Shown here in pieces: positions 20,263 through 47,283 of a stretch of 64,000 nucleotides of DNA. Numbering within the stretch: position 1 is the stretch's first letter; each line of letters begins with the position of its first letter. The position numbers and the translations under genes are program-made. Source of the DNA: Eledone cirrhosa. Taxonomy: Eukaryota. The DNA lies in assembly GCA_964016885.1 (NCBI GenBank), contig OZ024744.1, forward strand, positions 31,620,001 to 31,684,000, written 5' to 3'. The notes under the pieces are model-generated. The model was not told the DNA's origin. It was given only the letters and a program-made list of their open reading frames with translations, and did not search any database.

Positions 20263-20442
20263 ATTATTATTATTATTATTATCGATCTGTTCGGACGCTT
20301 TTTGCTCGCTCCCAGTAAGTCGCTTTATTTCCCTGTTATAATTATTTGTTGCTTAATTCTTCTTCTTGTGTAAGGAATATAAGCCCTTGGCCCAAATATT
20401 TGAACATTTAACTTAGAAAAAAAAAATTGTTTTAAAAAGAGC

Positions 20443-22162: not shown

Positions 22163-22194
22163 TCCTTTCTCACTTACCCCGTTTCTCATCCAAC

Positions 22195-25279: not shown

Positions 25280-25505
25280 GGCCGCACATGTGTGAAGACA
25301 GACAAGTCTGCGGGGGAAACGGTTCGTAGCTTTAAGCTGTTTTAAAGTGTCTTTTTTTTGTATTTTCTTGTCATTAACGAAACTTAAGGTACACATCTTG
25401 ATTTAAAGAGAGGGATACCTCTCAATATTCGGGCTTTAAGCCCGAATATTCAGATTTATTTTTTAAATCTTCGAAAAAGAATCGCTTCCCCACCAAAAGA
25501 AAATT

Positions 25506-27488
25506 ATGGAAATTTTCGACCTTGAAACGGTAAACAACGTTCAGGTCAAAAGTTTAAAGGCAGCCACTGCAGATTTCACCACGACTACGACGGCTACACT
25601 CATGCCTGTCATCCACTCTACTGAATGTGAAGGCAAAACTAAAAAGCTACCATCACAATCTTCTGGCATAGCAGCAGTATCATCTGAAAACGACATCACC
25701 ACCACCGCCGCCACCACCACCACAACAACAACAACTCAGAGCAATAACGACAAAAACACCGACAGCTTCAATGTAAACAAGGATGGCGGTGGCAACAGCA
25801 AGAATGACAACAACAACAATAAGAGCATCAGAAACACCACATTTGCTGCAGCAGCAGCAGCAAAAACAAAGCGCTTATTGAATATCGATATTGATATTAG
25901 CGATAAAGACGAACAGTTGGCCAAAGCGTGGAGGCTAATTAAACGGGAGAAGTCCTGGGCAAACCTGACCATCCCGGACGAGGCAATAGCGGCCATGCAA
26001 AGGAGGACGGTGCTCTTTCGATGTATTTCGGTGCAGACACGAAAAGTGGAACTTGCGAGCCAAGCAGAGGTAGAGGCTGCGTTGGAGTACATCGGAAGTA
26101 ACATAGAGTACAAAGCAAGAGGCAAACAGTTCGGTACCATCTCGGTACTGTTCAAATCCGAGGCCCTCGCTATTAAGCACTCGGTGATCCCCTGCAGAAC
26201 GGAACGCATTATCATGCATCCGTCCTATATGGGTAAAAGGACAGTGAAGGTACGCATTCCCAGCATCCCACCAGGAATGAACATATGGTGGCTGCTGGGA
26301 TGCGTAATCGAGGAGGGGACAGACACCACCCTCCTGGACATCAAAAGGACAGAGTGAGAAGACTGGTCCGGAATGGATTTGGAGATTCTTCTCCAAATGA
26401 AACCGGAGGATATAAATAACACCCCAAATTTTGCCCGCCTGCAGGACGGGACAACAATCCAACTAATAATTGACGGAAGAAGGCCACGTTGCTTCGTTTG
26501 CGGGGAAGCCACGCATCTTCAAGCCTTCTGCCCTCAGCGTAAAAATGCAGGGGTCGCAAACCTCCTTTGTTGCCAACGCCAGTGTCAGCACGGAAAGCTG
26601 CACCACCACCACCACCACCAAAAACAACATCAACAAAAACACGGACACCAACATCAAAAGCAGCCGGATCACCACCAACACCAAAACCAATCCAAGGAGA
26701 AAACGAGGAAAGCTCTCCCACTCCCCCCTACCCCCCCCCAACTATATACATAGACAAAAAAAAAAAATAAACGCACACACAGACACAGAGACACTCACAG
26801 ACACAGACCCTTTGTCTTCCAGCAGCGAAGATGAAGGAAAACCCAAAAGTGCAAAAAAACAGAGAAAACTCACACAAAAAAAAAGCCCCTACAAAACACA
26901 AAAACACACACAACAAAAAATACAGACACCACTAACGCAGACACTTCCCCAATAACATCAGCACCATCAGCAACATCGACACCACCTCCACAATCCCCGA
27001 AACGCAAACAACCTAAACAAACACAAGTACAAATAAACACACAAATACCTGAAATTGCAGACACCACACCTACAACAAACATAGACATACCCGAAACAAC
27101 ACCACCAAAACCATCGCCACCACCTTCACCAAAACGAAAACAAATAAAACCACACCAACAAAATGTTAAAAACTTCGTGCTTGTCAGAAGGGCCAACGAT
27201 AAACTGATGGCCCTCTTAGCGCGAAGCGAGGACATTCAAACAGAGGGGGAGATTTTTGAAATGAGCACATTTTGCGTGCCAGAAGATTTGCTTCTGGTCC
27301 GAATGTCACTCAATTCTTTCAAAGAAATTCGAGAGAGCTTTCCTCAAGACGTGGGAAACCCGAATGTGAAACCCACATCAAGACTTTTAAAGGGGTTCCC
27401 AAAAGAAACCCCACCAACCATGGAGGTCGAACCACCCGACCTTCACAAGACCCAGGAGGTAAGTAAACCTTCCCTCTCTCTCTCTTAG
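25506..27488 (+). pseudogene. Copy B ORF1 (divergent gag-like, CCHC knuckle)
   Basis: 283-aa N-terminal ORF, in-frame TGA at 26355, then CFVCGEATHLQAFC and a Pro/Thr-rich tail with frameshifts. Confidence 0.8.
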
Positions 27489-27497
27489 CTTACCAAT

Positions 27498-30400
27498 ATG
27501 GCCATATTAAGAGTAGGAAGTTTAAATGTTCGCGGCCTCGGGTCACCCTGGAAGCAGGGTCGCCTGCTCAACGACCTCCGGTCGCTGGAAATGGATGTGA
27601 TTGCCGTAAGCGAGACCAGAATTTCCGACACGCGTGCACTAGCCCCCATTTCGACGACTATCAGATCTTCGCATCTGTTAGCAGGCCGGGAATGGGGGTG
27701 GGGTGGCAATGCTGTTTAGGAAAGGACTGGATCTCGAGGTAAGGTCGATCTTCCGGGAACCGGACGGTAAGTTGGTGGTCTTGGATGTGAGCAGTAGTGA
27801 AGGTGGTGCCTTTAGACTGCTGGCCGCCTACGCCCCTACAGGGGCCGGACGACCTGACTTCTTTAGGCGCCTGGAGACCTTTCTGGGTACGTCTCGCCCT
27901 TTACTGTTAGCGGGGGACTGGAATGGCATCTTAGACGCACGCTGGGATTGTGTGGGAGTAGCCGATAGGAGCGGGGGGTGCAAAAGCCTCAAGCACCTAC
28001 TCAGCCAGTTCCAACTGTCTGACAGGTATCGACTAGATTTCCCCAATGTGCCAGTATGGACATGGACCAACCGAATGGGGTCATCTAGATCGTATATAGA
28101 CAGAATCTTCATTAGGAAAATAGATAGAAATAGTGTGGGCTGTCCACTTTTTAAAACGGTCGCCTATTCAGATCACAAATTTGTGATCTGTACGGTCGAC
28201 CTAAATAAAACGCGTAGGTTAGGACCGGGTTACTGGAAGCTGAACATGTCATTTCCGGCACGTGAGGCTTACAGGGACCGAGTCAATAAGTTAGTTAAGG
28301 GGGGATCATCAACAACAGATGGTGGGGGCTCTCAAAAGAGAGATTAGAGTAACTTCGATAGAGTTCAGCAAAGAACTAGCGTTAGAGAAAAATAGAAAGG
28401 AGGGGAGCTGGTAGATAAGTTAGACGAGGCTATTTGTAGTGGCATCGCAACTGACGTGCTAGCGGCGAGAATGGCATTAGACCATTTCTTCAATGCCAAA
28501 CACGAAGGTTGCATTGTCAGAGCTAAGGCGCGTGCGCTGAGAAACGAGGGAACTAAAGCTGTTCGATGGGCCCGCGTGGCGGAGGCGCAGCGTGGTAATA
28601 AAACCACAATTCGGTCTTTGGCGGACCGAGACGGACACGAGATAAGCGATTCCAAGCGGATGTGTGAGGCCTTTCGCCAGCACTTTGCTCGGTTGTTCGG
28701 GAAGAGTGGCGGGTCAGAGAGAGTAGCGGATTTCAGTCCCTACCTTGACGGCTTGCCGCGCATCTCGACGGTCGACGCTGAGCGCTGCGAAAGGCCGATT
28801 ACTTCAGCCGAAATTCAGGACGCCCTTGTCGGCTGCATGAGGCGCAAGTCACCAGGCTTGGATAGCCTGCCCTACGAGCTTTACGTAAATATGCCAGACT
28901 TGTTCTCCGAACTCCTTGAAGCACTCTACTGTAACTGGCAGCAGAATGGGAGTATTCCCAGTTCTGTGAGCAGGGGAGTGGTGACGCTGATAAGGAAAGA
29001 CGAGAACAAGAGGGATACATTAAACAACTTCAGGCCCATAACTCTGCTCAACACAGAGTTTAAGATTTTGGCCAAGGTGTTAGCAAAGAGATGCGCTTGT
29101 CGTCGGGGATTTGGTTGGGGAGGCGCAAACTTGCGCAATCCCAGCCAGGTCCATACACGACAATCTCCACCTAATGCGATACATCATAGAGAGGGTAGGG
29201 TGTAAACCTGGCTTCGGTGGGGCACTGATCAATTTAGATCAATCGAAAGCATTCGATAGGGTCGACCATCGGTATCTCGAGTTTGTCCTCAAAGCAGCTG
29301 GCTTCGGCCCTGTCTTTAGAAGCTGGATCGTTGCAATGCACAGCGGCACACGCTCGGTGGTCAAAGTTAATGGCCACCTCTCGGAACCATTTCGGCTCTC
29401 CCGATCGGTCCGTCAAGGGTGCCCTCTCTCTTCCCTTCTGTACGTATTGACTCTCGAGCCTTTACTGCGGAAGCTGGAGCTGTTGCAGGGCATCCCGCTC
29501 GAACCGGGACGTGGAAAGGCGGTGTCGGCTTATGCGGGCGACATCACCGTGATGGTGTCGAACACCTCAGAAATCGAGGTGGTCGGCGCCTTATTGAAAG
29601 AATATGAAAGGTTGACAGGAGCCAAACTTAACCCGGAAAAGTCGGTGGGCTTGCAGCTCGGAACCTGGAGAGGCAAGCCCATGCCGTCCAACAGCGTCGT
29701 GGGGCGCTGGACGGACGGACCAGTAAAGTTGCTCGGGGTTTGGTTCGGACCAGACCTCCAGGTGGAAAAGAATTGGGACGAGGTAACGAGCAGAGTAGCC
29801 AGTCTCACCCAAAAATGGGCTGGGAGGAAGCTATCACTGAAAGGTCGCGCGGAGGTGGCGAATGCGTACATCGCGTCCGTCATCTATTACCGCCTAACCG
29901 TCGTGCCTTGCCCCCGTCCGCGCCTCGTCAAGTTGGAACGGCTCCTCTTCAAATTCTTGTGGAGGGGACAAGTTCCGTTGGTGAGGCGGTCCATCTGCTG
30001 CCAGCACCCTCAACACGGAGGGCTGGGCATGCCGTGGCTAATGATGCGCAGACATGCGTCGAGGCTGCGACATCTCCAGATATTCTGCCTCAATGGTGAA
30101 CAGGTGTGGTCGCCGTTTATCAGACGGGCCTTTCCGCAGCTCATTTCTTTGACTGAGCTGCAGTCCTGGGTCAAGAAGAGACCGAGACTGGGTGACTGGC
30201 ACCTGGAATGTTGCCAGGCACTCACTGCCCTCTACCAAGCGGGCAATGCGATCAGTGGAACTTCCACTCTCGAGTTTTATAGAGGATTAGTGGTGGGCAA
30301 GTGCGATGACGCACTCGGAGAAGCTTTGGGCCTCGACGAAGTCGAACTGACCAGTCTGTACCGGAGGACTTTTGAGCCGGGGACGATGGACAATTTCCAG

Positions 30401-30901
30401 AAATCCCTCGCTTGGCAGTGCTACCGGGGGGCACTGCCGGTTCGGGATAAACTCTACAGGCACGGAAGTGCTGTCAGACGGACCTGCCCAAGATGCGCAC
30501 AGAACGACGAAACCGTTCTGCACGCACTTGTCCAATGTCCGTGCATTACTGACTTGTGGAGTTATGTCGAACAGCTACTGTCGCGTGTGGAACGAATCCA
30601 GTTATCGGCCGAGTCCATAGTGAAGATCGAGCCGCCACCTTCCTTAGGTCAGGAAGAGCAGGACATTTTCCTCTGTCTGGTGGCAGTTGCGAAAGAGATT
30701 ATATGGTGGACCAGGTTGAAAGGACTAAAGACAGACACTTTTCTCTTCGGCCAATCCCTCATCAACTTCTTCAAGTTTCACCTGGAAAGGAGGGTGAGGG
30801 TGGAGAGAGAAGTGCTGCCCCCCAGTACATTTGCTAAAAGGTGGGTGAATGTGGCAAGAATGGCTCGTGTGAATGGGCCTACTCTGACCATGCGCCTATA
30901 G
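27498..30901 (+). pseudogene. Copy B ORF2 (APE-RT-zinc finger), frameshifted, YADD changed to YAGD
   Basis: ORF pieces at 27498, 27703, 28456 and 29111-30901 are collinear with the intact ORF2 of copy C. Confidence 0.9.
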
Positions 30902-31179
30902 GCTAGCTAACTTGAGGAGAGGGGTGCTCTCCTGGGTGCCCTAGAAGCGCAGGGTGGTTCAGGATTGGTGGGGTACCCGAATCACCCCAGGGTCGTCCAC
31001 CTCCTATCGGGGAATTTATTTTGTTATATTTTGCATAGTTTATTTTATATTTTATATTTTCATTGTTAAATTAGTCTTGCCATTGTGCACTTTTACTCGA
31101 CCTTATTGTAAACCCCCACTGTCCCTGTCTTTGTATTGTCCCCTACATGTCGGCCCTTGTGGCTAATAAATGAAATAAT

Positions 31180-31350
31180 TGTTTCTACTTTTGGCACAAG
31201 GCCAGCAATTACCCAGTGCATTACTGGTACTTTATTTTATCGACCCCGTAAGGATGAAAGGCAAAGTCAACCTCGGCGGGATTTGAACTCAGATCGTAAA
31301 GGGACGTAACTATGCTGGAAAGCATGGCGTCCGACCCTCTACCGATACTG
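31180..31350 (-). mobile_element. SINE inserted antisense into the tail of copy B, with a 10-bp TSD
   Basis: ATGAAATAAT at 31170-31179 and 31351-31360 flanks the reverse-complement SINE. Confidence 0.85.
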
Positions 31351-31376: not shown

Positions 31377-31411
<35 letters not shown>

Positions 31412-31720
31412 AGTTGCATTTATCTTGCTTTATGTTCATACGAGTTATCACCAAGTCACAACCAGTGACTTCAAGAGACAACAAGGTTCGCCATGTTCAA
31501 GAAAGAACATACATACTCACACATGCATCCTTAGTGTTTAGACTTGTGATGTACTTATATTGACAGGATCTTCCTTAGTATATGGGCAGTTCCCATTAGT
31601 ACTATCTTTTGTATTTCTCCTATACGCGGGTTTCCTGGGATTTGCGATAAGTAATCATTAGACCCCTTAGGTATCATTCCCAGAGCGCCTACAACCACTG
31701 GTATTGTTTTAGTTTATTAT

Positions 31721-31902
31721 CGGTGGATTGGCAGTATCGGTAGAGGGTCGGACGCCATGCTTTCCAGCATAGTTACGTCCCTTTACGATCTGAGTTCAAA
31801 TCCCGCCGAGGTTGACTTTGCCTGTCATCCTTACGGGGTCGATAAAATAAAGTACCAGTAATGTACTGGTTAATTGCTGGCCTTGTGCCTAAAGTAGAAA
31901 CA

Positions 31903-31953
<51 letters not shown>
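31721..31953 (+). mobile_element. Near full-length tRNA-derived SINE (central part resembles the Deu/Nin domain) with (ATT)n tail
   Basis: A box TGGCAGTATCGG, B box GAGTTCAAATCC, TCATCCTTACGGGGTCGATAAAATAAAGTACCAG, long (ATT)n tail. Confidence 0.85.
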
Positions 31954-32169
31954 GAATGCTATGGTTGACGGAGGCTCGGCTCTGTAAGGTATTGTAAATT
32001 TTGAACGCTATAACAATTGTAAATTGTTTAAAACTTTAACGAACTTGTAGACAAAAACACCCTCCTCCTCGTGAGAGGGGTCTTTCTGCCCGTTATTTGG
32101 CCCTTCGGGGTTAAATAACTGCTTATTGGGGTTTTGTGCCCAATATTTATTTAAAAAAAAAATAACAAC

Positions 32170-34267
32170 ATGGCTACGAAAAAGAATTTTCATAGGTCAC
32201 TCCCACTCATTCCGTCTTCTTCTTCCTCAATCATCACTACAGCAGAGAAGATTGTCTCTCTCCCTCCCTTCTTTAAATGTGTCTCTCTCCCTCCCTTCTC
32301 TTTCGCAAGCGACGAAAGAAAAGAAAAGTCTCGTGCAAAGTGTGCAAGATTTCTCCACGACGACGACGACAACGACGAAACAGGTATGCGGGAAATACGA
32401 AAACCCATTTCATTCGTCTGACGTCAGGAATAATAGCAGTAGCAGCCGTAATAACAACAGCAACAGTGACAATGAAAACAACAGTAGCAGCCGCAACAGC
32501 ATCACCAGCAGCATAAACAACAACAGCATTAGCAGCAGCAACATCAACAACAACCACAGCAACAGCGGCGGAGGCAGTAGTCGTAGTACCTGCAGCAACA
32601 ACAAAAGTAACAGCAGCTCTGACGACAACAACAACAGCAGCAAAGAAAAAACAATCTCATTTGCAGGTATTGCGAAGAACCTGGAAACAATCCTCATAAC
32701 AAATGAGGAATTAGAGGAAGCGAAGAAGATGGTGATAAAGACCGGACACCGAGCAATCTGCAAGGCAGCGGAAACATTTTTCGAAACCCAACAGCACTGT
32801 ACGGTCACGTACCGTACAGTAAGTACAAAATCCCGTAGGGTTGAAAGAGCCACAGAGGCTCAAATACAAAAAGCCTTGGGGGTCTGTGTGGCAGCGGAAA
32901 ACGCACATCACCCGAGGCAAAAAATATGCCACCGTAGACGTACTTTTTGCCACACCCCAGGAGGCAAAGGCTCAATCCGTAGGGACCCTAAGGAGCGAGG
33001 AAATAGTGTTGGTGCCCTCCTACTGCGAGCAAAAAATTGTGAGGGTCAAACTGACCCACGTTCCCCCCGGGATGACCCCTCTTGGCTGGCCGCGTCTGTC
33101 CTCGTCGGAATCGAGGACAAAACAACTGTACTGCAAGTACAGAAAAAAGTAAGAGAAGATTGGGTCGGCACCTCCATTGAGATGCTAATCCAAACCAACC
33201 AGGAGTGCATCGAAGCTATCCCGGATGTGATAGACTTCGATAACGGCACTCAACTGCCCATAAGTGTTGAGGGCAAACGCCCGAAATGCTTTCGCTGTGG
33301 ATTGAAGACTCACCTCAGGGCCTTCTGCAACGAGAAGACCCTGAGAAAGGAGAAAACCCCCATCCTTCCGAAACCGGCTCCACCGCTACCAGCAACAGGA
33401 CAAGCGGCAACCAGGAACGATAGGTCCGTCGCACCCATACCCACGCCACGGAAATCAAAAACAGCAATAGCAGTGGAAATATTAACAACAACAACAGCAA
33501 TACCAAATGCAGCTACAACAGAGACTCCAGTGCAAACATCACCAACAACAACAAGTGAAAGAGTGGAGCTGGTACCCCTCCCCGACCTCACAGAATCAGA
33601 CATGGAGTGTGCGGTGGGAGAGGGATGGCAAAAGGTCGTAAGAAGGCACAAACGCAGAAGCAGCGCATCGTCGCCTTTGAAAAGGGAGGAAAGAAATGAG
33701 AAAAGGGTAAAGTCTACTGCAAAGAGACTCACAGCAGCAACACCACCAACACCATCACCACCCACACTAGCACCACCATCACCACCGGCGACAACCCCAC
33801 CGCCAACAACACCTTCAACACCACCACCACAAGCACCAACATCGCAAACACAACAACAAAACACACACACCCAGCAACAACGACAAGAAAATAGCAGAAC
33901 CACACCCCACCCCCAGAAAAACAAATGCACGGCAATAAATACACACAACAAGAAACTAATGACTTACATAATTGAACACACAGACATTTCACAACAGGAC
34001 TACATAATACCAGCACCAATCAAAACGCCAACTAACATAAGACTGCTAAAAATAGCACAGAAACAATACACAAATATTAAAACGAAATTCCCCAACGCAG
34101 TTGGTGATTTCAGGGACCTAGGAGGAACCATCAATCGAAGAGTATACTCAGACATTCTCTTAGAAGAGCCGACGACCAGCCGAAGGGACGATTCAACGGT
34201 CCCTTCACCAGACGATCAAGTGAAAAGGGATGTAAAAACCATCCCTCCTCTACCAAAAGTACGGTAA
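32170..34267 (+). CDS. Copy C ORF1, nucleic-acid-binding protein (RRM-like region and CCHC knuckle); apparent small indels
   Basis: CFRCGLKTHLRAFC (CX2CX4HX4C). The homologous segment RKTHITRGKKYATVDVLF...VPSYC is in another frame between ~32880 and ~33068; the likely ATG at 32170 is also out of frame with the 713-aa ORF. Confidence 0.7.
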
Positions 34268-34302
34268 GTGGTCTTTCCCATCTTTTCCACTCTATTTTAA
34301 AC

Positions 34303-37300
34303 ATGACCTCACTCAGAATAGGCAGCATAAATGCGCGTGGCTTGGGGTCGTCATGGAAGCAGGGTCACCTGCTCAACGACCTCAGGTCACTAAACATAGA
34401 TGTAGTGGCCATCAGCGAGACCAGAATCTCCGAAGCACGGGCCTTCGCACCGATCTTCGGCGGCTTCGATGTGTACGCATCTCCCAGCCGTCCTGGATCC
34501 GGTGGAGGAGTTGCTGTGCTTTTTCGGAGAGGTTTGGATCTCGCCATACGGGCCATCTTCCTGGACCCAGAGGGTAAGCTGGTGGTGCTGGACGTGACCA
34601 GCGGAGACGGGCAAGCTTTCAGGCTAGTGGCCGTCTATGCCCCGACAGGAGCAGGGCGGCCTGATTTCTTCCGGCGTCTGGAGACCTTTCTTGGAACGTC
34701 CCGCTCTTTAGTGTTAGTGGGCGACTGGAACGGGATCTTAGATGCACGCTGGGACTGTGTGGGATTAGCGGATAGGGGTGGAGGGTGCAAGAGCCTCACC
34801 AACCTGCTCAGGCGTTTTGAACTGTCTGACAGGTACCGATTGGATTTCCCGAATGTGCCAATGTGGACTTGGACAAACCGCATAGGGTCATCCAGATCAT
34901 ATCTAGATAGAGTATTTTGTAGGGAAATAGATAGGTCTAGCATAGGCTGTCCACAATTCAAGATAGTCAGCTACACGGACCACAAATTCGTGATCTGTGT
35001 GCTTGACTTAGATAGGCTTCATAGACGAGGACCCGGCTACTGGAAGCTAAACGCGTCCTTTCCAGCGCGCAAGGCCTACAGAGACCGGATTAGCGAACTA
35101 GTTAAGCGGGCATTGACGGGGGCCATCGTCAACAACAAGTGGTGGTTTGCTCTGAAAAGAGCGATTAGAATAGAATCGATTAGGTTTAGTAAGGCTTTAG
35201 CAATAGAGAAAAATAGAGCAGAGGGAGAACTAGTTAGAAAATTAGACGAGGCGCTTAGCAAAGGCATTGCGACCGACGTGCTTGCGGCGAAATTGGCCCT
35301 TGACCAATTCTTCAATGCAAAGCACGAAGGCTGCGTTGTCAGAGCAAGGGTGCGTGCTCTCAGACACGAGGGGACGAAAGCCGTGCAATGGGCCCGAGTG
35401 GCGGAGGCGCGTCGTGGCAACAAAGCCACGATCCGGTCTTTGGTGGACCACGACGGGCGCATGCTACTCGATCCCGGGCAAATGTGTGAAGCTTTTCAGC
35501 GACACTTCGCTCAGCTGTTCGGGGGCAGCGGTGGGCCGGGTAGAGGGATGGACTTTAGTGTCTACCTCGACGGACTGCCGCGGCTCTCGGCCACTGAGGC
35601 GAAGTGTTGCGAAAAGCCGATAACAGCCGCTGAAGTAAGGGAGGCAATGACTGGCTGCACAAGGGGTAAATCGCCTGGTTTGGATGGTCTGCCCTATGAA
35701 CTTTACGTACAGATGCCAGACTTGTTCGGAGGCCTCTTGGCGGACGTCTACTGCAACTGGCAACAGAACGGGAGAATTCCCAGTTCTGTGAGCCGAGGAG
35801 CGGTGGCACTGCTGAGAAAGGATCCGAACAAGGGGGATAACATAGAAAATTTCCGGCCCATAACTCTGCTAAACACAGAGTTTAAGATTTTGGCCAAGGT
35901 GCTAGCAAAGAGGTTGGCGCTTGTCGTTGGTGGTCTGGTGGGAGAGGCGCAGACATGCGCCATTCCCGACAGATCCATCCACGACAACCTCCACCTCATG
36001 CGATACATCGTAGAGAGGGTAGCTAGGGAACCTGGCACGGGTGGGTCCTTGATCAATTTAGATCAGTCGAAAGCTTTCGATAGGGTCGACCATCGTTACC
36101 TAGCGGCAGTCCTGAGGGCGGCTGGCTTTGGGCCCGTCTTCAGAGGCTGGATCGCTGCCATGCACAGCGACATCTGCTCTGTGGTGAGAGTGAACGGTCA
36201 CCTGTCTGAACCGTTCAACATCATGCGCTCGGTCCGCCAAGGATGTCCCCTCTCGTCCCTCTTGTACGTATTGACGCTCGAGCCATTACTGCACAAACTG
36301 GAGACGTTGAGGGGAGTCCCGCGCGAACTAGGATGCGGAAGATCCGTGTCAGCATATGCGGACGATGTCACCGTAGTGGTGTCGAACGCCAAACACATCG
36401 AGGCGATCGGCACTACACTAAGAGAATACGAAGCGGTGACAGGAGCAATGATCAACCAGGAAAAGTCAGTGGGCCTGCAGCTCGGCACCTGGAGAGGCAG
36501 GTCCATGCCGTCCAACAGCGTCGTCGGGCGCTGGACGGACGGACCGGTTAAATTGCTAGGGGTCTGGTTCGGTCCGGACCTCCAGACGGACAAAAACTGG
36601 GACGAGGTGACGAGCAGGGTGGCTTCTCTCACCCAGAAATGGGCGGAGAGGAAGCTATCCCTGAAAGGTCGAGCGGAGGTGGCTAACGCGTACATCGCGT
36701 CTGTCATCTGCTACCGCCTAACCGTCGTACCTTGTCCTAAGCCTCGCCTGACTGCGCTGGAGCGTTTGCTCTTTCGCTTTTTGTGGAAGGGACGTGCTCC
36801 GATGGTCAGGCGGTCCATCTGTTGTCAACACCCGCTACGTGGAGGGCTGGGCATGCCGTGGCTGATGATGCGCAGGCACGCGCTCAGGCTACGACATCTC
36901 CACCTCTTCCTCGACGGTGATCAGGTGTGGTCGCCGTTTGCTAGACGCGTTTTTCCCCAGCTCGTTTCCTTGACGGAGCTGCAGTCCTGGGTCAAGCGAA
37001 GACCGAGAGGGAGCGCCTGGAGACTGGAATGTCTTCAGGCGCTCACAGCCCTCGACCAATCGGGCAATGTGATCGGTGGAAACTCCACCTCGGCGTTCTA
37101 TAGAGGATTAGTGGAGGGGAAGAGCGACGACGTACTTGGGGAAACTCTAGGCGTCGACGAAAATCAACTAGCCAATCTCTTCGGAAGAACTTTCGGGCCG
37201 GGGCCTATGGACAACTTCCAGAAATCTCTGGCCTGGCAGTGCTACCGAGGAGCCTTGCCAGTTCGGGATAAACTCTACAGGCATGGAGGTGCCGTCAGCC

Positions 37301-37722
37301 GGGCATGTCCGAGATGCGCGCAGGGCGACGAAACCGTCCTGCACGCACTCGTCCAGTGTCCGAAAATTGCTGACTTGTGGGTTTATGTCGAACACCTGCT
37401 GTCGCGTTTAGGACGGATCCGGCTATCATCTGAGTCCATCGTGAGGATTGCCCCGCCCTCCTCCTTTAGCCGGGAAGGGCAGGCAGTTTTTATCTGCCTG
37501 GTGGCCATGGTGAAAGAGATAGTATGGTGGACACGTTTGAAAGGGCTGAAGACGAGCACTTACCTCTTCGGTGATGCTCTGATTGACTTTTTCAAATTTC
37601 ATTTGAAAAGGAAAATCAGAGTAGAGAGGGAAGTGCTCTCTTCCCAGCATTTTGTTGAAAGATGGGTGAGAGAAGCAAGAATGGCCCGAGTGAATGGGCC
37701 TACTCTGAGTATATATCTGTAA
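34303..37722 (+). CDS. Copy C ORF2: intact 1139-aa APE endonuclease, reverse transcriptase and C-terminal zinc finger (Tx1/L1 clade)
   Basis: INARGL, ISET, VYAP, GDWN, YLDR, TDH (APE); KSPGLDG, RPITLLN, DQSKAFD, RQGCPLS, YADD, LLGV (RT); CPRC...H...C. Confidence 0.95.
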   Translation: MTSLRIGSINARGLGSSWKQGHLLNDLRSLNIDVVAISETRISEARAFAPIFGGFDVYASPSRPGSGGGVAVLFRRGLDLAIRAIFLDPEGKLVVLDVTSGDGQAFRLVAVYAPTGAGRPDFFRRLETFLGTSRSLVLVGDWNGILDARWDCVGLADRGGGCKSLTNLLRRFELSDRYRLDFPNVPMWTWTNRIGSSRSYLDRVFCREIDRSSIGCPQFKIVSYTDHKFVICVLDLDRLHRRGPGYWKLNASFPARKAYRDRISELVKRALTGAIVNNKWWFALKRAIRIESIRFSKALAIEKNRAEGELVRKLDEALSKGIATDVLAAKLALDQFFNAKHEGCVVRARVRALRHEGTKAVQWARVAEARRGNKATIRSLVDHDGRMLLDPGQMCEAFQRHFAQLFGGSGGPGRGMDFSVYLDGLPRLSATEAKCCEKPITAAEVREAMTGCTRGKSPGLDGLPYELYVQMPDLFGGLLADVYCNWQQNGRIPSSVSRGAVALLRKDPNKGDNIENFRPITLLNTEFKILAKVLAKRLALVVGGLVGEAQTCAIPDRSIHDNLHLMRYIVERVAREPGTGGSLINLDQSKAFDRVDHRYLAAVLRAAGFGPVFRGWIAAMHSDICSVVRVNGHLSEPFNIMRSVRQGCPLSSLLYVLTLEPLLHKLETLRGVPRELGCGRSVSAYADDVTVVVSNAKHIEAIGTTLREYEAVTGAMINQEKSVGLQLGTWRGRSMPSNSVVGRWTDGPVKLLGVWFGPDLQTDKNWDEVTSRVASLTQKWAERKLSLKGRAEVANAYIASVICYRLTVVPCPKPRLTALERLLFRFLWKGRAPMVRRSICCQHPLRGGLGMPWLMMRRHALRLRHLHLFLDGDQVWSPFARRVFPQLVSLTELQSWVKRRPRGSAWRLECLQALTALDQSGNVIGGNSTSAFYRGLVEGKSDDVLGETLGVDENQLANLFGRTFGPGPMDNFQKSLAWQCYRGALPVRDKLYRHGGAVSRACPRCAQGDETVLHALVQCPKIADLWVYVEHLLSRLGRIRLSSESIVRIAPPSSFSREGQAVFICLVAMVKEIVWWTRLKGLKTSTYLFGDALIDFFKFHLKRKIRVEREVLSSQHFVERWVREARMARVNGPTLSIYL

Positions 37723-37982
37723 ATTAAAGGTGGAAAACTGGGAGAGGGCACTTGCCTTGGTGGTCAGGGTCATTGTGGCTTTTTACTGGGCTTTCACCAC
37801 AAATGTCCCTCCGAAGTCTCCCCCCTATTGGGGAATTTTTCATTGTTATTTTCATTGTTATTTTTGTTACATCCTCTGTTTTTGTTTTTTTTACACGCAG
37901 AAATGCCCATTTGTACCGTCCTGCATTGTCCTGCACTGTCCTTAATGTCTACTTTATGTAAACCCTTGTGGTTAATAAAGAA

Positions 37983-38027
<45 letters not shown>

Positions 38028-38236
38028 GGCGACCTACGTAGGAAATCGTATTATCGTGAGCTCCGCAAAGGTTTGTTATTTCCGTTCGTTTAAAAATTGC
38101 CATTTATGGAAAATTTTATTGTAAGCTGTTTATAAGCACACATACATTGTTTTCCGAAAAGGACACCCAAAAAGATTGGGGCCTTGTGCCCAAAATTTTA
38201 ACTTTTATTATTATCCAAAAATTTCTTTGAAAAAAC

Positions 38237-40224
38237 ATGGCTAATTCCCCTCTGCACGAAGCAGCTGAAAGCCTTCCTCACAAAATAACACCTCACACCG
38301 ACACCACCATTGTAAATGTTACTACGTTTGCCAACACGAAAAAAAATATAAGCAGTAGCAATATTTTAAATTTGTCTCAGGCAGACATTCATTTCCCGCC
38401 ATTACCAATGACTGCAGGTGTTAAACCCTCCTCCACCACCACCACCGCGACAACCACCACCACCACCACCACCACCGCGACACCAGAAACAAAAGAAGAA
38501 AAAAATAAATTAACTCGTGACGTCGAAATGAAATCAAGCAAAATGGACTCTTCCCCACCAAAGACGACTGACGTCACCACCACCACAACTGAAAATAAAA
38601 TTAATATTAACGATAGCAACAACAACAACAATGACATTATAAAACCGACCCTCAGTTTCGCCATCGTAGCAAAACAATTCGAAGCGTTCACGGTAACTCA
38701 AGAAGATTTAGAAAATGCCAAACAAATGGTAAAGAAAGATGGGTACAGGGTCAGCCTCACCCCCCACCTAATAAAATGGAGCATCGGCGCCTGTGCACCG
38801 TGTCGTATAGAACAATAAATGTAAAATCGCGCCGAGTGGAACGGGCATCCGAGTCCCAAATCCAAAAAGCTTTGGGACATGTGTGGGCAAGAAAAACCCA
38901 CATCAGACGTGGGCAAAAGTATGGAACCGTGGATGTGTTCTTTGAAACACCAGATGAGGCTAGAGAACACTCCATGGCCCCATTAAAAAGTGACGACCTC
39001 ACACTCGTCCCAAGCTATTGTGGCCAGAGACTCGTAAAGATCAGGGTGACCCACGTTCCACCGGCCATCGAAATTCCCTGGCTAATAGCGGCTGTCCTCG
39101 CCGGCATCGAAGCCAACACGAAAATAATAGCAGTAGCAAAAGAAAAGCAGGAAAACTGGTCGGGATCTGGGATGGAGCTCCTGATCCAAGCGGACCAAAA
39201 AAGCATTGAGGATATCCCAGAGGTAATAGACCTCACTGACGGCAGCCACCTCACGGTAATTGTCGAGGGCAGAAGACCTAGGTGTGTCGTTTGTGGTGAA
39301 GGAACCCACCTAAGGGCTTTCTGCCCTCAGGCTAAAAGGTTGAGGCCACCTCTCCTACCCACCCCAGTGACACAACCATCAACACCACCAGTAGCAGAGA
39401 TGGCAGCAACAACTGTAGCAGCAACAACAGAAGCAACTATAACAGCAACAACCCCAGCAACAGTAGCAAAACCAACACCACTACCACCACCAGCAAAACC
39501 AACACCACCACCACCCAACGCTTCAGAACTAGTACCAGCGCCTACACCATCCACCGCACCACAACCAAAACTAACGGCTGTGGAGGATTTTCCACTCCCC
39601 GGCCTATCACAACTGGAGACAGATTGTGACGACGAGGAGTGGGAAACGATATCCGGGAAAAAAAAAAGAAACCAAAAAAGAAAAAATTCTCTTCCTTCCC
39701 CCTCCAAAAACAAAATACAGAGGGAAACAAATAAACTAAGAAACAAAAAAGTTAGGACAGATATGCCACCATCCACACCAGCATCACCAACCCCATCAAC
39801 CCAAACACCAACACCATCACCATCATTATCCCCAGCACCACCATCACCTACACCACAAAAGTCACCAAAATGCGAAACAGAAACAAACCCACAACAAACG
39901 CAAACAAAACAAGACAACCAAAACGATACACACTACACAGCATTAAATTTGAACAACAAGCAATTATTACACTACATCCAACACAACACCAGCATCACAG
40001 AAAAAGACTACACAACAACCCCAAAATTCACACCACCTCCACACATACAAATCACTCGCATCACACAGAAAACGTACATGACACTAAAACAAAAATTCCC
40101 CAAAGACATCGGAGACTTCCGACAAGCACTCTCCAGGAGGATTTATAAGGACATCCTTCCTGAGGAGGCCACAGGCAGTGAAAAGGTTGGAAAAGCCGTC
40201 CTTCCCCTACGAGAAGTAAGGTAA
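38237..40224 (+). CDS. Copy D ORF1 (one frameshift near 38765)
   Basis: 38237-38818 and 38776-40224 overlap; CVVCGEGTHLRAFC knuckle. Confidence 0.75.
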
Positions 40225-40258
40225 GTGGTCTTTCCCATCTTTTCCACTCCTTTTCAAC

Positions 40259-43200
40259 ATGACCTCACTCAGAATAGGCAGCATAAATGCGCGTGGCTTG
40301 GGGTCGTCATGGAAGCAGGGCCACCTGCTCAACGACCTCAGGTCACTAAACATAGATGTAATGGCCATCAGCGAGACCAGAATCTCCGAAGCACAGGCTT
40401 TCGCACCGATCTTCGGCGGCTACGATGTGTACGCATCTCCCAGCCGTCCGGGATCGGGGGGAGGAGTTACTGTGCTTTTTCGGAGAGGTTTGGATCTTGC
40501 CATACGGGCCATCTTCCTGGACCCTGAAGGTAAGTTGGTGGTGCTGGACGTGACCAGCGGAGACGGGCAAGCTTTCAGGTTAGTGACCGTCTATGCCCCG
40601 ACAGGAGCAGGGCGGCCTGATTTCTTCCGGCGTCTGGAGACCTTTCTTGGAACGTCCCGCTCTTTAGTGTTAGTGGGCGACTGGAACGGGATATTAGATG
40701 CACGCTGGGATTGTGTGGGATTAGTGGATAGGGGTGGAGGGTGCAAGAGTCTCACCAACCTGCTCAGACGTTTTGAACTGTCTGACAGGTACCGAATGGA
40801 TTTCCCGAATGTACCAATGTGGACTTGGACAAATCGCATAGGGTCATCCAGATCATATCTAGATAGAGTATTTTGTAGGGAAATAGATAGGTCTAGCATA
40901 GGCTGTCCACAATTCAAGATAGTCAGCTACACGGACCACAAATTCGTGATCTGTGTGCTTGACTTAGATAGGCTTCATAGACGAGGACCCGGCTACTGGA
41001 AGTTAAACGCGTCCTTACCAGCGCGCAAGGCCTACAGAGACCGGATTAGCGAATTAGTTAAGCGGGCGTTGACGGGGGCCATCGTCAACAACAAGTGGTG
41101 GTTTGCTCTGAAAAGAGCAATTAGAATAGAGTCCATTAGGTTTAGTAAGACTTTAGCAATAGAGAAAAATAGAGCAGAGGTAGAATTAGTTAGAAAATTA
41201 GATGAGGCGCTTAGCAAAGGCATCGCGACCGACGTACTTGCGGCGAAATTGGCCCTTGACCAATTCTTCAATCAAAGCACGAAGGCTGCGTTGTCAGAGC
41301 TAGGGTGCGTGCTCTCAGACACGAGGGGACGAAAGCCGTTCAATGTGCCCGAGTGGCGGAGGCGCGTCGTGGCAACAAAGCCACGATCCGGTCTTTGGTG
41401 GACCACGACGGGCGCATGCTACTCGATCCCGGGCAAATGTGTGAAGCTTTTCAGCGACACTTCGCTCAACTGTTCGGGGGCAGTGGCGGGCCGGATCGAG
41501 GGATGGACTTTAGTGTCTACCTCGACGGACTGCCGCGGCTTTCGGCCACTGAGGCGGAGTGTTGCGAAAAGCCGATAACAACCGCTGAAGTACGGGATGC
41601 AATGACTAGTTGCACAAGGGGTAAATCGCCTGGTTTGGATGGTCTGCCCTATGAACTTTACGTACAAATGCCAAACTTGTTCGGAGGCCTCTTGGCGGAC
41701 GTCTACTGCAACTGGCAACAGAACGGGAGAATTCCCAGCTCTGTGAGCCGAGGAGCGGTGGCGCTGCTGAGAAAGGATCCGAACAAGGGGGATAACATAG
41801 ATAAATTTAGGCCCATAACTCTGCTAAACACAGAGTTCAAGATTTTGGCCAAGGTGCTAGCAAAGAGGTTGGCGCTTGTCGTTGGTGGTCTGGTGGGAGA
41901 GGCACAGACATGCGCCATTCCCGACAGATCCATCCATGACAACCTCCACCTCATGCGATACATCGTAGAGAGGGTAGCTAGGGAACCTGGCACGGGTGGG
42001 TCTTTGATCAATTTAGATCAGTCGAAAGCCTTCGATAGAGTCGACCATCGTTACCTAGCGGCAGTCCTGAGGGCGGCTGGCTTTGGGCCCGTCTTCAGAG
42101 GCTGGATCGCTGCCATGTACAGCGACATCTGCTCTGTGGTGAGAGTGAACGGTCACCTGTCGGAACCGTTCAACATCATGCGCTCGGTCCGCCAAGGATG
42201 TCCCCTCTCGTCCCTCTTGTACGTATTGACTCTCGAGCCATTACTGCACAAACTGGAGACGTTGAGGGGCGTCCCGCGCGAACTAGGATGCGGAAGATCC
42301 GTGTCAGCATATGCAGACGATGTCACCGTAGTGATGTCGAACGCCAAACACATCGAGGCGATCGGCACTACACGAAGAGAATACGAAGCGGTGATAGGGG
42401 CAATGATCAACCAGGAAAAGTCAGTGGGCCTGCAGCTCGGCACCTGGAGAGGCAGGTCCATGCCGTCCAACAGCGTCGTCGGACGCTGGACGGACGGACC
42501 GGTTAAATTGCTAGGGGTCTGGTTCGGTCCGGACCTCCAGACGGACAAAAACTGGGACGAGGTGACGAGCAGGGTGGCTTCTCTCACCCAGAAATGGGCG
42601 GAGAGGAAGCTATCCCTGAAAGGTCGAGCGGAGGTGGCTAACGCGTACATCGCGTCTGTCATCTGCTACCGCCTGACCGTCGTACCTTGTCCTAAGCCTC
42701 GCCTGACTGCACTGGAGCGTCTGTTCTTTCGCTCTTTGTGGAAGGGACGCGCTCCGATGGTCAGGCGGTTCATCTGTTGTCAACATCCGCTACGTGGAGG
42801 GCTGGGCATGCCGTGGCTGATGATGCGCAGGCACGCGCTCAGGCTACGACATCTCCACCTCTTCCTCGAATGTGATCAGGTGTGGTCGCCGTTTGCTAGA
42901 CACGTATTTCCCCAGCTCGTTTCCTTGGCGGAGCTGCAGTCCTGGGACAAGCGAAAACCGAGAGGGAGCGCCTGGAGACTGGAATGTCTTCAGGCGCTCA
43001 CAGCCCTCGACCAATCGGGCAATGTGATCGGTGGAAACTCCACCTTGGCGTTCTATAGGGGATTAGTGGAGGGGAAGAGCGACGACGTACTTGGAGAAAC
43101 TCTAGGCGTCGACGAAAATCAACTAGCCAATCTCTTCGGAAGGACTTTCGGGCCGGGGCCTATGGACGACTTCCAGAAATCCCTGGCCTGGCAGTGCTAC

Positions 43201-43677
43201 CGAGGAGCTTTGCCAGTTCGGGATAAACTCTACAGGCATGGAGGTGCCGTCAGCCGGGCATGTCCGAGATGCGCGCAGGGCGACGAAACCGTCCTGCACG
43301 CACTCGTCCAGTGTCCGAGCATTGCTGACTTGTGGGTTTATGTCGAACACCTGCTGTCACGTGTAGGACGGATCCAGCTATCAGCTGAGTCCATCGTGAG
43401 GATTGCCCCGCCCCCTTCCTTTAGCCTGGAAGGGCAGGCAGTTTTTATCTGTCTGGTGGCCATGTCGAAAGAGATAGTATGGTGGACACGTTTGAAAGGG
43501 CTGAAGACGAGCACTTACCTCTTCGGTGATGCCCTGATTAACTTTTTCAAATTTCATTTGAAAAGGAAAATCAGGGTAGAGAGGGAAGTGCTCTCTTCCC
43601 AGCATTTTGTTGAAAGATGGGTGAGAGAAGCAAGTATGGCCCGAATGAATGGGCCTTTTCTGAGTATGTGTCTGTAA
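40259..43677 (+). pseudogene. Copy D ORF2 (APE-RT-zinc finger), single frameshift near 41271
   Basis: TTCAAT-CAAAGCAC versus TTCAATGCAAAGCAC in C (1-bp deletion); otherwise collinear, YADD intact. Confidence 0.9.
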
Positions 43678-43921
43678 ATTAAAGGTGGAAAACTGGGAGA
43701 GGGGACTTGCCCTGGTGGTCAGGGCCACTGTGGTCTTTTAATGGGCTTTCTCCACAAATGTCCCTTGGAAGTCTCCCCCGTATTGGGGAATTTTTCTTTG
43801 TTATTTTATTTCAACCTCTGTTTTTTTTTACACGCAGAAATGCCCATTTGTACCGTCCTGTATTGTCCTGTACTGTCCTTAATGTCTACTTTATGTGAAC
43901 CCTTGTGGTTAATAAAGAAAA

Positions 43922-43978
<57 letters not shown>

Positions 43979-43979
<1 letters not shown>

Positions 43980-46600
43980 CCATTTGTTCAATGCGAAACA
44001 CGAAGGTTGCATTGTTAGAGCTAAGGCGCGTGCGCTGAGAAACGAGGGAACCAAAGCTGTTCGATGGGCCCGCACGGCAGAGGCTCAGCGTGGTAATAGA
44101 ACCACAATTCGGTCTTTGGCGGACCGAGACGGACACGAGCTAAGCGATTCCAAGCGTATGTGTGAGGCCTTTCACCAGCACTTTGCTCGGTTGTTCGGGG
44201 GGAGTGGCGAGTCAGAGAGATTAGCGGACTTCAGTCTCTACCTTGACGGCTTACTTCAGCCGAAATTCAGGACGCCCTTGTCGGCTGCATGAGGCGCAAG
44301 TTACCCGGTTTGGATGGCCTGCACTATGAGCTTTACGTAAATATGCCAGACTTGTTCTCCGATCTCCTCGAAGGACTCTATTGCAACTGGCAGCAGAATG
44401 GGAGTATTCCCAGTTCTGTGAGCAGGGGAGTGGTGACGCTGATAAGGAAATACGAGAACAAGAGGGATACAATAGACAACTTCAGGCCCATAACTCTGCT
44501 CAACGCAGAGTTTAAGATTTTGGTCAAGGTGTTAGCAAAGAGATTGACGCTTGTCGTCGAGGATTTGGTTGGGGAGGCGCAAACTTGTGCAATCCCAGCC
44601 AGGTCCATACTCGACAATCTCCACCTCATGCGATATATCATAGAAAGGGTAGGGTGTAAACCTGGCTTCGGTAGGGCACTGATCTATTTAGATCAATCGA
44701 AAGCATTCGATGGGGTTGACCATCGGTATCTGGAGTTTGTCCTCAAAGCAGCTGGCTTCGGCCCTGTCTTTAGAAGCTGAATCGCTGCAATACGCAGCGG
44801 CACACACTCGGTGGTCAAGGTTAATGGCCACCTCTCGGAACCATTTCGGCTCTCCCGATCGGTTCGTCAAGGGTGCCCTCTCTCCTCCCTTCTGTACGTA
44901 TTGACACTCGAGCCTTTACTGCGGAAGCTGGAGCTGTTGCAGGGCATCCCGCTCGAACCGGGACGTGGAAAGGTGGTATCGGCTTATGCGGACAACATCA
45001 CCGTGATGGTGTCGGACACCTCAGAAATCGAGGTGGTCGGCACCTTATTGAAGGAATATAAAAGGTTGACAGGAGCCAAACTTAACCCGGAAAAGTCGGT
45101 GGGCTTGCAACTCGGAACCTGGAGAGGCATGCCTATGCCATCCAACAGCATCGTGGGGCGCTGGACAGGTGGATCGGTAAAGTTGCTCGGGGTTTAGTTC
45201 GCATCAGACCTCCAATTGGAAAAGAATTGGGACGAGGTAACGAGCAGAGTGGCCAGACTCACCCAAAAATGGGCTGGGAGGAAGCTATCACTGAAAGGTC
45301 GGGCGGAGGTGGCGAATGCGTACATCGCGTCCGTCCGTCGTGCTTTACCCCCGACCACGCCTCGTCAAGTTGGAACGGCTCCTCTTCAAATTCTTGTGGA
45401 AAGGACAAGTTCCATTGGTGAGGCTGTCCATCTGCTGCCAGCACCCTCTACGCGGAGGGCTGGGCATTCCATGGCTTATGATGCGCAGACATGCGCTAAG
45501 GTAGCGACATCTCCAGATAGTCTGCCTGTGTGGTCGCCGTTTATCAGACGGGCCTTTCCGCAGCTCGTTTCTGTGACTGAGCTGCAGTCCTGGGTCAAGA
45601 AGAGACCGAGACTGGGTGACTGGCACCTGGAATGTTGCCAGGCACTCACTGCCCTCTACCAAGCGGGCAATGCGATCAGTGGAACTTCCACTCTCGTGTA
45701 CTATAGAGGATTAGTGGTGGGCAAGTGCGATGACGCACTCGGAGAAGCTTTGGGCCTCGACGAAGTCGAACTGACCAGTCTGTACCGGATGACTTTCGAG
45801 CCGGGGACGATGCACAATTTCCAGGAATCCCTCGCTTGGCAGTGCTACCGGGGGGCACTGCCGGTTCTGGATAAACTCTACAGGCACGGAAGGGCTGTCA
45901 GACGGACCTGCCCAAGATGCGCACAGAACGACGAAACCGTTCTGCACGCACTTGTCCAATGTCCGTGCATTACTGACTTGTGGAGTTATGTCGAACAGCT
46001 ACTGTCGCGTGTGGAACGAATCCGGCTATCGGCCGAGTCCATAGTGAAGATCGACCCGCCGCCTCCTTAGGCCAGGAAGAGCAGGATATTTTCCTCTGTC
46101 TGGTGGCAGTTGCGAAAGAGGTTATATGGTGGACCAGGTTGAAAGGACTGAAGACAGACACTTTTCTCTTCGGCCAATCCCTCATCAACTTCTTCAAGTT
46201 TCACCTGGAAAGGAAGGTGAGGGTGGAGAGAGAAGTGCTGTCCTCCTGTACATTTCCTAAAAGGTGGGTGAATGTGGCGAGAATGGCTCGTGTGAATGGG
46301 CCTACTCTCACCATGCGCCTATAGGCTAGCTAACTTGAGGAGAGGGTGCTCTCTCTGGGTGCCCTAGAAGCGCAGGGTGGTTCAGGATTGGTGGGGTACC
46401 TGAGTGACCCTAGGGTCGTCCACCCCCTATAGGGGAATTTATTTTGTTATATTTATGCTTAGTTTATTTTATATTCTTACATCTTCATTGTTAAATTAGT
46501 CTTGCCATTGTGCACTTTTACTCGACCTTATTGTAAACCCCCACTGTCCCTGTCTTTGTATTGTCCCCTACATGTCGGCCCTTGTGACTAATAAATGAAA
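43979..46600 (+). pseudogene. 5'-truncated Tx1-like LINE copy E (B subfamily)
   Basis: Starts mid-ORF2 (FNAKHEGCIVRAKARA) right after the (ATT)n tail of D; YADN; 3' UTR nearly identical to B. Confidence 0.9.
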
Positions 46601-46609
46601 TCATTATTA

Positions 46610-46803
46610 TTGGATTGGCAGTATCGGTAGAGGGTCGGACGCCATGCTTTCCAGCATAGTTACGTCCCTTTACGATCTGAGTTCAAATCCCGCCGAGGTT
46701 GACTTTGCCTTTCATCCTTACGGGGTCGATAAAATAAAGTACCAGTAATGCACTGAGTAATTGCTGGCCTTGTGCCTAAAGTAGAAACAATTATTATTAT
46801 TAT
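46610..46803 (+). mobile_element. SINE, same family as 31721
   Basis: Near-identical to 31724-31905; begins after ATTATTAT. Confidence 0.9.
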
Positions 46804-46828
46804 TGTTGTTATTGTTGTTGTTGTTGTT

Positions 46829-47080
46829 AGGGCGGTGGATTGACCGTATCAGTTGAGCGTCAGACATGATACTTTGCAGCCTAGAGTTATGGCCCTTTAC
46901 AGTCTAAATTCAAATAATGCCGTGGTGAGCGTTGCCTTTTATATTTACGGTGTCGATAAAATAAAGCACCAGTCCTGCACTGGGGTCGATTTAATCGACT
47001 TTCCTCTCACCCAAAATACACTGACCTATAGTAGAAACCATTCTGGCCTTGGGCCAAAAGTAGAAACAATTATTATTGTT
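46829..47080 (+). mobile_element. SINE, older/longer subfamily
   Basis: GGCGGTGGATTGACCGTATC...GTCGATAAAATAAAGCACCAG...GGCCTTGGGCCAAAAGTAGAAACAATTATT. Confidence 0.75.
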
Positions 47081-47085
47081 ATAAC

Positions 47086-47283
47086 AAGGGCGGTGGATTG
47101 ACAGTATCGGTAGAGGGTTGGACGCCATGCTTTGACGCATAGTTTCGGCCCTTTATGATCTGAGTTCAAATCTCACGAAGGTTAACTTTGCCTTTCATCC
47201 TTACGGGGTTGCTAAAATAAAGTACCAGTAATGTACTGGGATAATTGCCGGCCTTGTGCCAAAAGTAGAAACAATTATTATAA
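47086..47283 (+). mobile_element. SINE, same family
   Basis: GGGCGGTGGATTGACAGTATCGG...GAGTTCAAATC...GGCCTTGTGCCAAAAGTAGAAACAATTATT. Confidence 0.85.

Follow-up and report, generated by a model that had tools for sequence, protein, structure and literature searches.

A tRNA-type SINE of Eledone cirrhosa ends in the same short tail as the Tx1-type LINEs among which it lies, and this Tx1 lineage is likely its partner. The finding comes from a stretch of 64,000 nucleotides (contig OZ024744.1, positions 31,620,001 to 31,684,000; the window, in whose numbering all coordinates are given) and from copies of its elements elsewhere in the genome. On the joint reading of the data, it is fairly probable that the SINE is copied by the ORF2 enzyme of the ATT branch of Tx1, with the hairpin of the shared tail as the handle.

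Between 17 and 47 kb, the window contains seven related LINE copies arranged head-to-tail, together with SINEs and a Dong-like fragment, with ATT arrays between them. A CR1-type LINE further downstream served as a rival for comparison.

17183..20280 (+), two older truncated Tx1 copies, Z1 to ~18716 and Z2 to 20262; 3' motif decayed
20281..25165 (+), LINE A, decayed, with internal deletions; 3' hairpin AGCC-CTTGT-GGCC at 25145-25157
25163..25277 (+), 5'-truncated SINE directly 3' of LINE A; hairpin at 25233
25280..31172 (+), LINE B; 3' hairpin GGCC-CTTGT-GGCT at 31152-31164
31177..31350 (-), antisense SINE inside the tail of LINE B; hairpin at 31192-31203
31410..31705 (-), R4/Dong-like LINE, a 3' fragment with (AAT)n at its end; same array, opposite orientation
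31721..31953 (+), full SINE of ~185 nt; hairpin GGC-CTTGT-GCC at 31879, then GAAACA(ATT)17
31954..37982 (+), LINE C, full length, ~6 kb
32075-34267 (+), ORF1 frame of LINE C
34306 (ATG) to 37722 (stop) (+), open ORF2 of LINE C with APE endonuclease, RT and zf-RVT
37961..37973 (+), 3' hairpin AACC-CTTGT-GGTT of LINE C, the central feature
37974..38027 (+), AATAAA, GAA and (ATT)15 after the LINE C hairpin, running into the 5' end of LINE D
38028..43922 (+), LINE D, ORF2 split over two frames; 3' hairpin at 43898-43910
43979..46602 (+), LINE E, a 5'-truncated B-type copy; hairpin GGCC-CTTGT-GACT at 46577-46589
46611..47276 (+), three tandem SINE copies; hairpins at 46766, ~47045 (loop CTTGG) and 47250
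58320..60790 (-), CR1-type LINE ending in (ATT)n; different hairpin, GTGC-ACCTGA-GCAC

The (ATT)15 array after LINE C is tail plus target. We take the fragment at 31410..31705 to be R4/Dong-like from its C-terminal protein motif, and the labels CR1, RTE-like and Dong-like used below are likewise our assignments from protein motifs. Two Dong-like families with (AAT)n ends sit very often antisense in Tx1 and SINE tails (31410-31705 (-); L007, L008, L011 and others), so that one array serves three element kinds. At 31177-31409 the antisense SINE in the LINE B tail adjoins an inverted (AAT)8 and then an (ATT)10 array. The 3' UTR end of CR1 is duplicated in tandem in some copies (58320-58560 (-); L178), and a tRNA-like element occurs twice with inverted flanks at 49100-49530, where ARAGORN predicts a tRNA-Ser(cga) at 49365-49437.

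LINE C carries an ORF1 frame upstream of a 1204-residue ORF2 frame that matches Pfam families PF03372, PF00078 and PF13966. Two ORFs, the second with an APE endonuclease, a reverse transcriptase and a C-terminal zinc motif, make up the architecture of the L1 superfamily. The solved structures matched by ORF2 are of L1 and R2 types only, the best relative being human LINE-1 ORF2p (E 3e-52, residues 4-854; R2 proteins, 1e-21). The closest named homologue among those listed comes from Argonauta hians (74%), and no named Tx1 reference appears among the 120 homologues listed or the 8 clusters. Membership of the Tx1 clade is defined by RT phylogeny with Tx1L, Keno, Kibi and Koshi. The present LINE can be assigned to Tx1, provisionally, on its architecture and its preference for microsatellite targets, which are ATT-type arrays and, in sister families, TATC arrays. 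No related locus of a second species was found in metagenome contigs, either by protein or by pattern.

Copies of LINE C are 99-100% identical, and nine of ten fetched relatives are full length. C and D are 95.6% identical in ORF2 and the 3' UTR; their 5' UTRs differ, and ORF1 has diverged. In a further locus, L186, the 5' end is of the D type and the 3' end of the C type; together with the C/D modules this suggests exchange of 5' modules. An exact-tail count of ATT-type Tx1 ends across the genome returned 15,051, and 0 for the reversed-pattern control. The sister families end in (TATC)n and are stacked in TATC arrays (L102, L125, L086, L200, L261-L266); they keep the hairpin, with the loops CTTGT, CTGGT and CTCGT. 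Most of eight Tx1 families have a second conserved hairpin, CCCC-TATT-GGGG, located upstream of the 3' end by 100-170 nt (37823-37835 in the window, and equivalents); it has no counterpart in the short SINE.

The SINE itself is short (~185 nt), non-coding, interspersed and of high copy number, with Pol III boxes (A box TGGCAGTATCGG, B box GTTCAAATCC), no T4 run and a simple-repeat end, which are the attributes of a tRNA-derived SINE. Neither ARAGORN nor Rfam matched a tRNA in its head, and Rfam SINE matches stayed at chance level. A first reading of the window from its sequence only (the sequence-only reading) had described this element as co-clustered with the LINE. That description was too narrow: exact SINE tails before ATTA number 204,324 genome-wide (reversed-pattern control: 0). 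As a proxy for age, 44 copies gave a median identity of 88.6% to one window copy. The stem stands in the context CTGGC-CTTGT-GCCT in 31 of 91 copies, and with GCCA in 44. A longer subfamily (L169, L232, L237, L258) carries a 29-nt insert before the hairpin, consisting of a GTCGATTTAATCGAC palindrome and a C-rich tract; its 3' end is closest to those of Tx1 A and B.

All ten hairpins named in the sequence-only reading are present where it had placed them (LINEs A to E; SINEs at 25233, 31879, 46766 and 47250, and antisense at 31192-31203). Each LINE hairpin abuts AATAAA, and each SINE hairpin precedes GAAACA-ATT. Two older Tx1 ends, at ~18700 and ~20240, had been missed and lack the motif; relatives of the copy ending at ~20240 carry GGCC-CTTGT-GGCC. 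Of the stems as originally drawn, the common 3-bp part holds but the outer pair does not (A.C in LINE A, U.U in about a third of the SINEs). The GACT right arm of LINE E is a private G-to-A mutation, seen in 1 of 135 Tx1 ends. Allowing one mismatch, the core 9-mer occurs in the window about as often as expected (12 seen, 12.9 expected). The composite motif of hairpin, 7-8 nt, GAAA and ATT occurs 8 times versus 0 in 200 base shuffles, an excess that arises because the motif marks repeat copies and not independent events.

To collect Tx1 3' ends we anchored on the C-terminus of ORF2 and not on the motif; the 195 anchors led to 171 ends, of which 135 are distinct. CC-CTTGT-GG (CCCTTGTGG) stands before AATAAA in 111 of the 135 distinct ends, a sample that is biased toward families searched with window copies and includes one mis-anchored end (L060); the others are mostly single-copy variants. 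Every sampled Tx1 family has CC-YTNGT-GG ~9-10 nt before GAAANN-ATT, and the remaining 3' UTR diverges. Among eight family representatives, compared in end-anchored windows in which the TATC representative is a mutated copy and B is a few nt short, mean identity is 0.77 over the last 26 nt, 0.43-0.59 upstream and 0.46 after shuffling.

The last 26 nt of the SINE align without gaps to seven Tx1 ends (p 0.0002-0.005), with 15-18 matches for five of the seven and the same spacing from the loop to GAAA-ATT; the SINE lacks AATAAA. The same segment gave p 0.31-0.85 against a CR1 end, two Dong-like ends and one RTE-like end. It could be argued that the resemblance is due to chance and that LINE and SINE co-occur since both land in ATT repeats, as the Dong-like elements do in the same arrays without any tail similarity. 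An ungapped, position-matched similarity at p<=0.005 to all seven Tx1 ends and to none of the four others makes this explanation scarcely credible. Upstream of the last ~26 nt the homology stops (8-14 matches in 30), which is short for a SINE-LINE pair.

The sequence-only reading had called for a search for another LINE with a longer match to the SINE, and none was found among the sampled CR1, RTE-like and Dong-like ends. CR1 was rejected as mobiliser on its tails (p 0.42-0.45; two CR1-like families, the second with a 3' end that is different again) and on its duplications (0/21); this end comparison discounts L229 (wrong strand) and L208, L211 and L221 (no tail). RTE was rejected as well (p 0.46), three of five RTE-like fragments reaching the end, all with (GAT)n and without CTTGTG. 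R4/Dong could be dismissed as partner on two Dong-like ends that lack the motif and on their opposite orientation (ATT at the 5' junction in 0/39). The hairpin-plus-(AAT)n pattern gave 261 matches, and among the 100 matches listed most look by eye like SINE or Tx1 ends. Six TATC-tailed CTTGTGCC matches, considered as a missing-link LINE with the SINE stem, proved to be Tx1 copies, and single mutants because the left arm is unchanged. Of 13 GCCTTGTGC plus AATAAA matches considered for the same role, ten were flagged as SINEs by script and three are SINE-like by eye; these 13 genome-wide pattern matches, with SINE-like sequence upstream, revealed no LINE family that combines the stem of the SINE with AATAAA.

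Three RTE-like LINEs (L145, L159, L180) have related (GAT)n tails, and in the random sample the same ending occurs on a short repeat that is abundant; these LINEs and the (GAT)n repeat are possibly a second SINE-LINE pair. Duplication tests on GAT-tailed elements (0 of 12 in one, 5 ends in another) gave no usable signature.

Insertion sites were examined in a random sample of 90 SINE matches, 48 of them with a usable end. Duplications of at least 12 nt starting from the first ATT flank 22 of these 48 copies, versus 1.4% in the control, and their most frequent length over all loci is 17-18 nt (47/135; CR1 0/21). Tx1 duplications occur in 10/70 copies versus 7% in the control of the same test, and are unreadable because Tx1 lands in ATT arrays. 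Full-length Tx1 copies found to start no more than 90 nt after the end of a preceding element number 23, and the ATT spacer ahead of them measures 18-63 nt, never <18 nt; this minimum fits an 18-nt duplication, but it might equally stem from a requirement for six repeats. The ATT motif is present at the 5' junction of 103/162 SINE, 40/83 Tx1, 3/22 CR1 and 0/39 Dong-like copies (background 5.7%), the Tx1 count being diluted because many Tx1 '5' junctions' are breaks in old copies. SINE and Tx1 have the same orientation relative to ATT, and Dong-like elements the other. Long arrays are favoured by Tx1 (20/70), and short sites by the SINE (9/135). Relaxed mobilisation of the mammalian L1/Alu type yields insertions that end in poly(A) of variable length. 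A run of eight or more A after the end was seen in 0/70 Tx1 and 0/135 SINE copies. SINE tails in a TATC context number 5, versus the 204,324 before ATTA.

A different LINE (L2, I/Nimb, Ingi, Hero or an extinct one) might have moved the SINE, with the Tx1 match being an old borrowed remnant or convergence. The short match and the control-like level of Tx1 duplications are compatible with this, L2 is listed among the expanded cephalopod families (PMC8967140), and an I/Nimb-like fragment is present (L154), its 3' end missing. The rival ends compared are those of CR1, Dong-like and RTE-like elements, no 3' end of L2, I/Nimb, Ingi or Hero having come to light. In RTE systems the start of the duplication follows the terminal repeat of the RNA (PMC6007223), so that landing at ATT need not identify the enzyme. 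On the other hand, 600 kb of random DNA contained 45 SINE-type tails, of which 44 have SINE sequence upstream and one is a tail fragment; the sampled CR1, RTE-like and Dong-like ends all differ, and CR1 lacks ATT-initiated duplications. We therefore consider a different LINE quite improbable. The shared (ATT)n, which the partnership had been said to explain, is not diagnostic, because a CR1 family ends likewise and the same arrays serve Dong-like elements on the opposite strand. The interpretation offered from the sequence holds in part. Its Tx1-SINE partnership is supported by the homology of the tails, by the way the elements insert and by the differing ends of the CR1, RTE-like and Dong-like families sampled; against it stand the control-like level of Tx1 duplications and the shortness of the tail.

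Folding predictions make the CUUGU hairpin a plausible structure. In a pairing table of 15 hand-picked and related rows (13 Tx1, 2 SINE), 86% of cells are paired in the hairpin register versus 7-55% in slid registers. C-G is constant at pair 1. At pair 2 the LINEs have C-G and the SINEs G-C, either G-C or A-U stands at pair 3, and 6 of 14 rows show no pairing at pair 4. The double changes are C-G to G-C, between LINE and SINE, and G-C to A-U, in the C/D clade. Compensatory changes in the stem, as proposed with a constant loop, are thus seen at two of the three core pairs. They go back to some two or three independent events, and the number of pairs showing a double change does not reach significance (59/500 shuffles). 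The hairpin is no more stable than shuffled sequence (z -1.44 to +0.81); that of LINE C is present in both the MFE and the centroid fold (z -0.83). Predicted fold probabilities of the LINE hairpin are 0.8-1.0 in ATT-type families and ~0.5 in TATC types. For the SINE (n=26), the median closing-pair probability is 0.12 at full length, 0.61 in the last ~55 nt and 0.96 in the last ~35 nt, and 7 of 26 full-length folds reach at least 0.5.

Tx1 might also move the SINE by way of primary sequence (CCTTGTG...GAAA) and AUU pairing, with the hairpin being incidental or serving, for example, in LINE 3' processing. The weak and context-dependent fold and the few independent double changes are in line with this explanation, as are the invariant positions, conserved in sequence as well as paired, and the LINE motif abutting AATAAA. 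However, LINE and SINE differ within the motif precisely by an exchange of C-G for G-C in which both bases changed, a reciprocal replacement of G-C by A-U marks the C/D clade, and the motif is kept in a SINE without AATAAA. Recognition by primary sequence is for these reasons unlikely in our view, and stringent recognition of the hairpin by Tx1 ORF2p, for which known systems provide the analogy, is slightly favoured.

A GGG/CCC hairpin with a long stem and a variable loop also occurs in all four Tx1 5' UTR types, 30-70 nt before the ORF1 start:

38179-38191 (+), 5' UTR hairpin of LINE D
32127-32150, 5' UTR hairpin
25423-25447, 5' UTR hairpin
20385-20400, 5' UTR hairpin

The hairpin of LINE D, which had gone unnoticed in the earlier reading, is of the SINE type (GGGC-CTTGT-GCCC). 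Its loop in 16 D-type copies is CTTGT in 8 and CTTGA in 5, with none found in 3; over all types the variants are CTTGT, CTTGA, TTTGT, CTTTT and TTTAA. The SINE tail is about as similar to the D-type 5' UTR as to most Tx1 3' ends. This raises the alternative that the SINE tail is a bipartite derivative, formed by fusion of the hairpin region of a Tx1 5' UTR with the 3' terminus, or that a D-type 5' UTR captured an old SINE tail, in which case the 3' resemblance would be partly secondary; both are compatible with Tx1 as mobiliser. The best local match to the SINE tail in D is indeed the 5' UTR segment ATTGGGGCCTTGTGCCCAAA, with the stem polarity of the SINE, and the hairpin is present in all four 5' UTR types. 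Yet its score of 28 is marginal against shuffles (95th percentile 26, maximum 30), the loops vary, the GAAA-ATT spacing is common to 3' ends only, and in the available text of PMC5786205 the only groups reported to have bipartite non-autonomous LINEs are RTE, Ingi, Vingi and R2. We regard a 5' UTR origin as very improbable.

For the shared-tail hairpin as the handle of the ATT-branch enzyme, the following mechanism can be proposed. ORF2p of this branch would bind the CUUGU hairpin and nick the AAT strand; the freed 3' end of the target would pair with the AUU of the RNA, and reverse transcription would start at a fixed distance from the hairpin. The SINE would mimic the last 26 nt of Tx1, AATAAA not being needed. 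The hairpin would mark RNA of the lineage, and the endonuclease together with the terminal repeat would set the target (ATT or TATC branch), which would explain the near-absence of the SINE from TATC. New ATT tails would in turn offer fresh landing sites, building stacks of elements. Copy C, whose ORF2 had been put forward for the partner role, is probably not the historical partner: C is young with A-U at pair 3, whereas the SINE is older and has G-C there, like families A, B and Z2. The age of the SINE and its G-C pair make an A/B/Z2-type family the more likely partner in the main SINE burst than the young C family.

Stringent pairs of the L2 clade are known from eel (UnaL2/UnaSINE) and zebrafish (ZfL2-1, ZfL2-2) (PMC4176376); the 'Tx1' that appears in the available text of this paper denotes mutant proteins and not the clade, and was set aside. 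As in the L2 pairs, LINE and SINE share a 3' stem-loop, here a predicted one, with a conserved loop and an exchangeable stem before a short terminal repeat. Unlike these pairs, the system described here has an L1/Tx1-type LINE, a stem of 3-4 bp and long target duplications, and is known from sequence alone. Within the L1 clade, maize ZmSINE2/ZmSINE3 and sorghum SINEs have been paired with LINE1-1_ZM, and Chlamydomonas SINEX-3_CR with L1-1_CR (PMC3472496, PMC3747384). These pairs resemble ours in the L1-clade LINE, the conserved 3' end and a hairpin common to the SINE, with compensatory changes (few of them in our case), and there too the argument is one of sequence. They share 50-80 nt, with poly(A) in the algal pair, whereas the present case is an animal one with ~26 nt, an ATT-type end and microsatellite targeting. 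L1-clade tails were recorded in only 3 SINEs among 58 pairs (PMC3472496), which, as we read PMC3747384, are two maize SINEs and one algal SINE.

Mobilisation by the Tx1 clade (Tx1-Mar) has been inferred for crocodilian SINEU from a shared target preference (PMC4494074). SINEU has snRNA heads, poly(A) tails and a Mariner target, whereas here the link is a shared 3' motif; the word stem-loop is absent from the main text of that paper. The teleost Tx1-clade elements Kibi and Koshi insert into (TC)n and (TTC)n, respectively (PMC4494074), and are like the present LINEs in that sister families use different microsatellites. Unlike them, the LINEs described here target (ATT)n and (TATC)n, and the available text of PMC4494074 names no partner SINE for Kibi or Koshi. 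Octopus SINEs derived from tRNA include OR1, a CORE-SINE, and related elements (PMC4824008), and SINEs make up ~12% of an octopus genome (PMC13282606). The SINE described here is like them in its tRNA-type A and B boxes and very high copy number; the comparison with OK, OR1 and OR2 is by description only, and no partner LINE is named in the available text of PMC4824008.

No Tx1 partner of an octopus SINE is named in the available text of the literature searched (including PMC4758252, PMC3531059 and PMC11203168), although SINE-LINE pair tables, SINEBase, Repbase or the 1994 octopus SINE paper could hold one. Tail sharing between a LINE and a SINE is a known kind of partnership, of which the text searched gave no example for this group of elements in animals, and we consider the present case of moderate importance because L1-clade elements seldom share tails with SINEs. 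Stringent recognition as the ancestral state in this clade would gain support from an animal Tx1 example, and the idea is made testable by the open ORF2, the 13-nt RNA element and the natural stem variants. A more tentative proposal, to which we give somewhat less than even credence, is that an animal L1/Tx1 lineage has kept stringent recognition through a minimal 3-bp CUUGU hairpin, powering a SINE of >200,000 copies, with one lineage-wide hairpin code and a target switched between ATT and TATC by the terminal repeat and the endonuclease. The related 5' UTR hairpin may be a second binding site of ORF2p and the source of the SINE's stem. If this proposal is true, the near-identical intact copies would be a direct model for the L1-type shift from stem-loop to poly(A) recognition.
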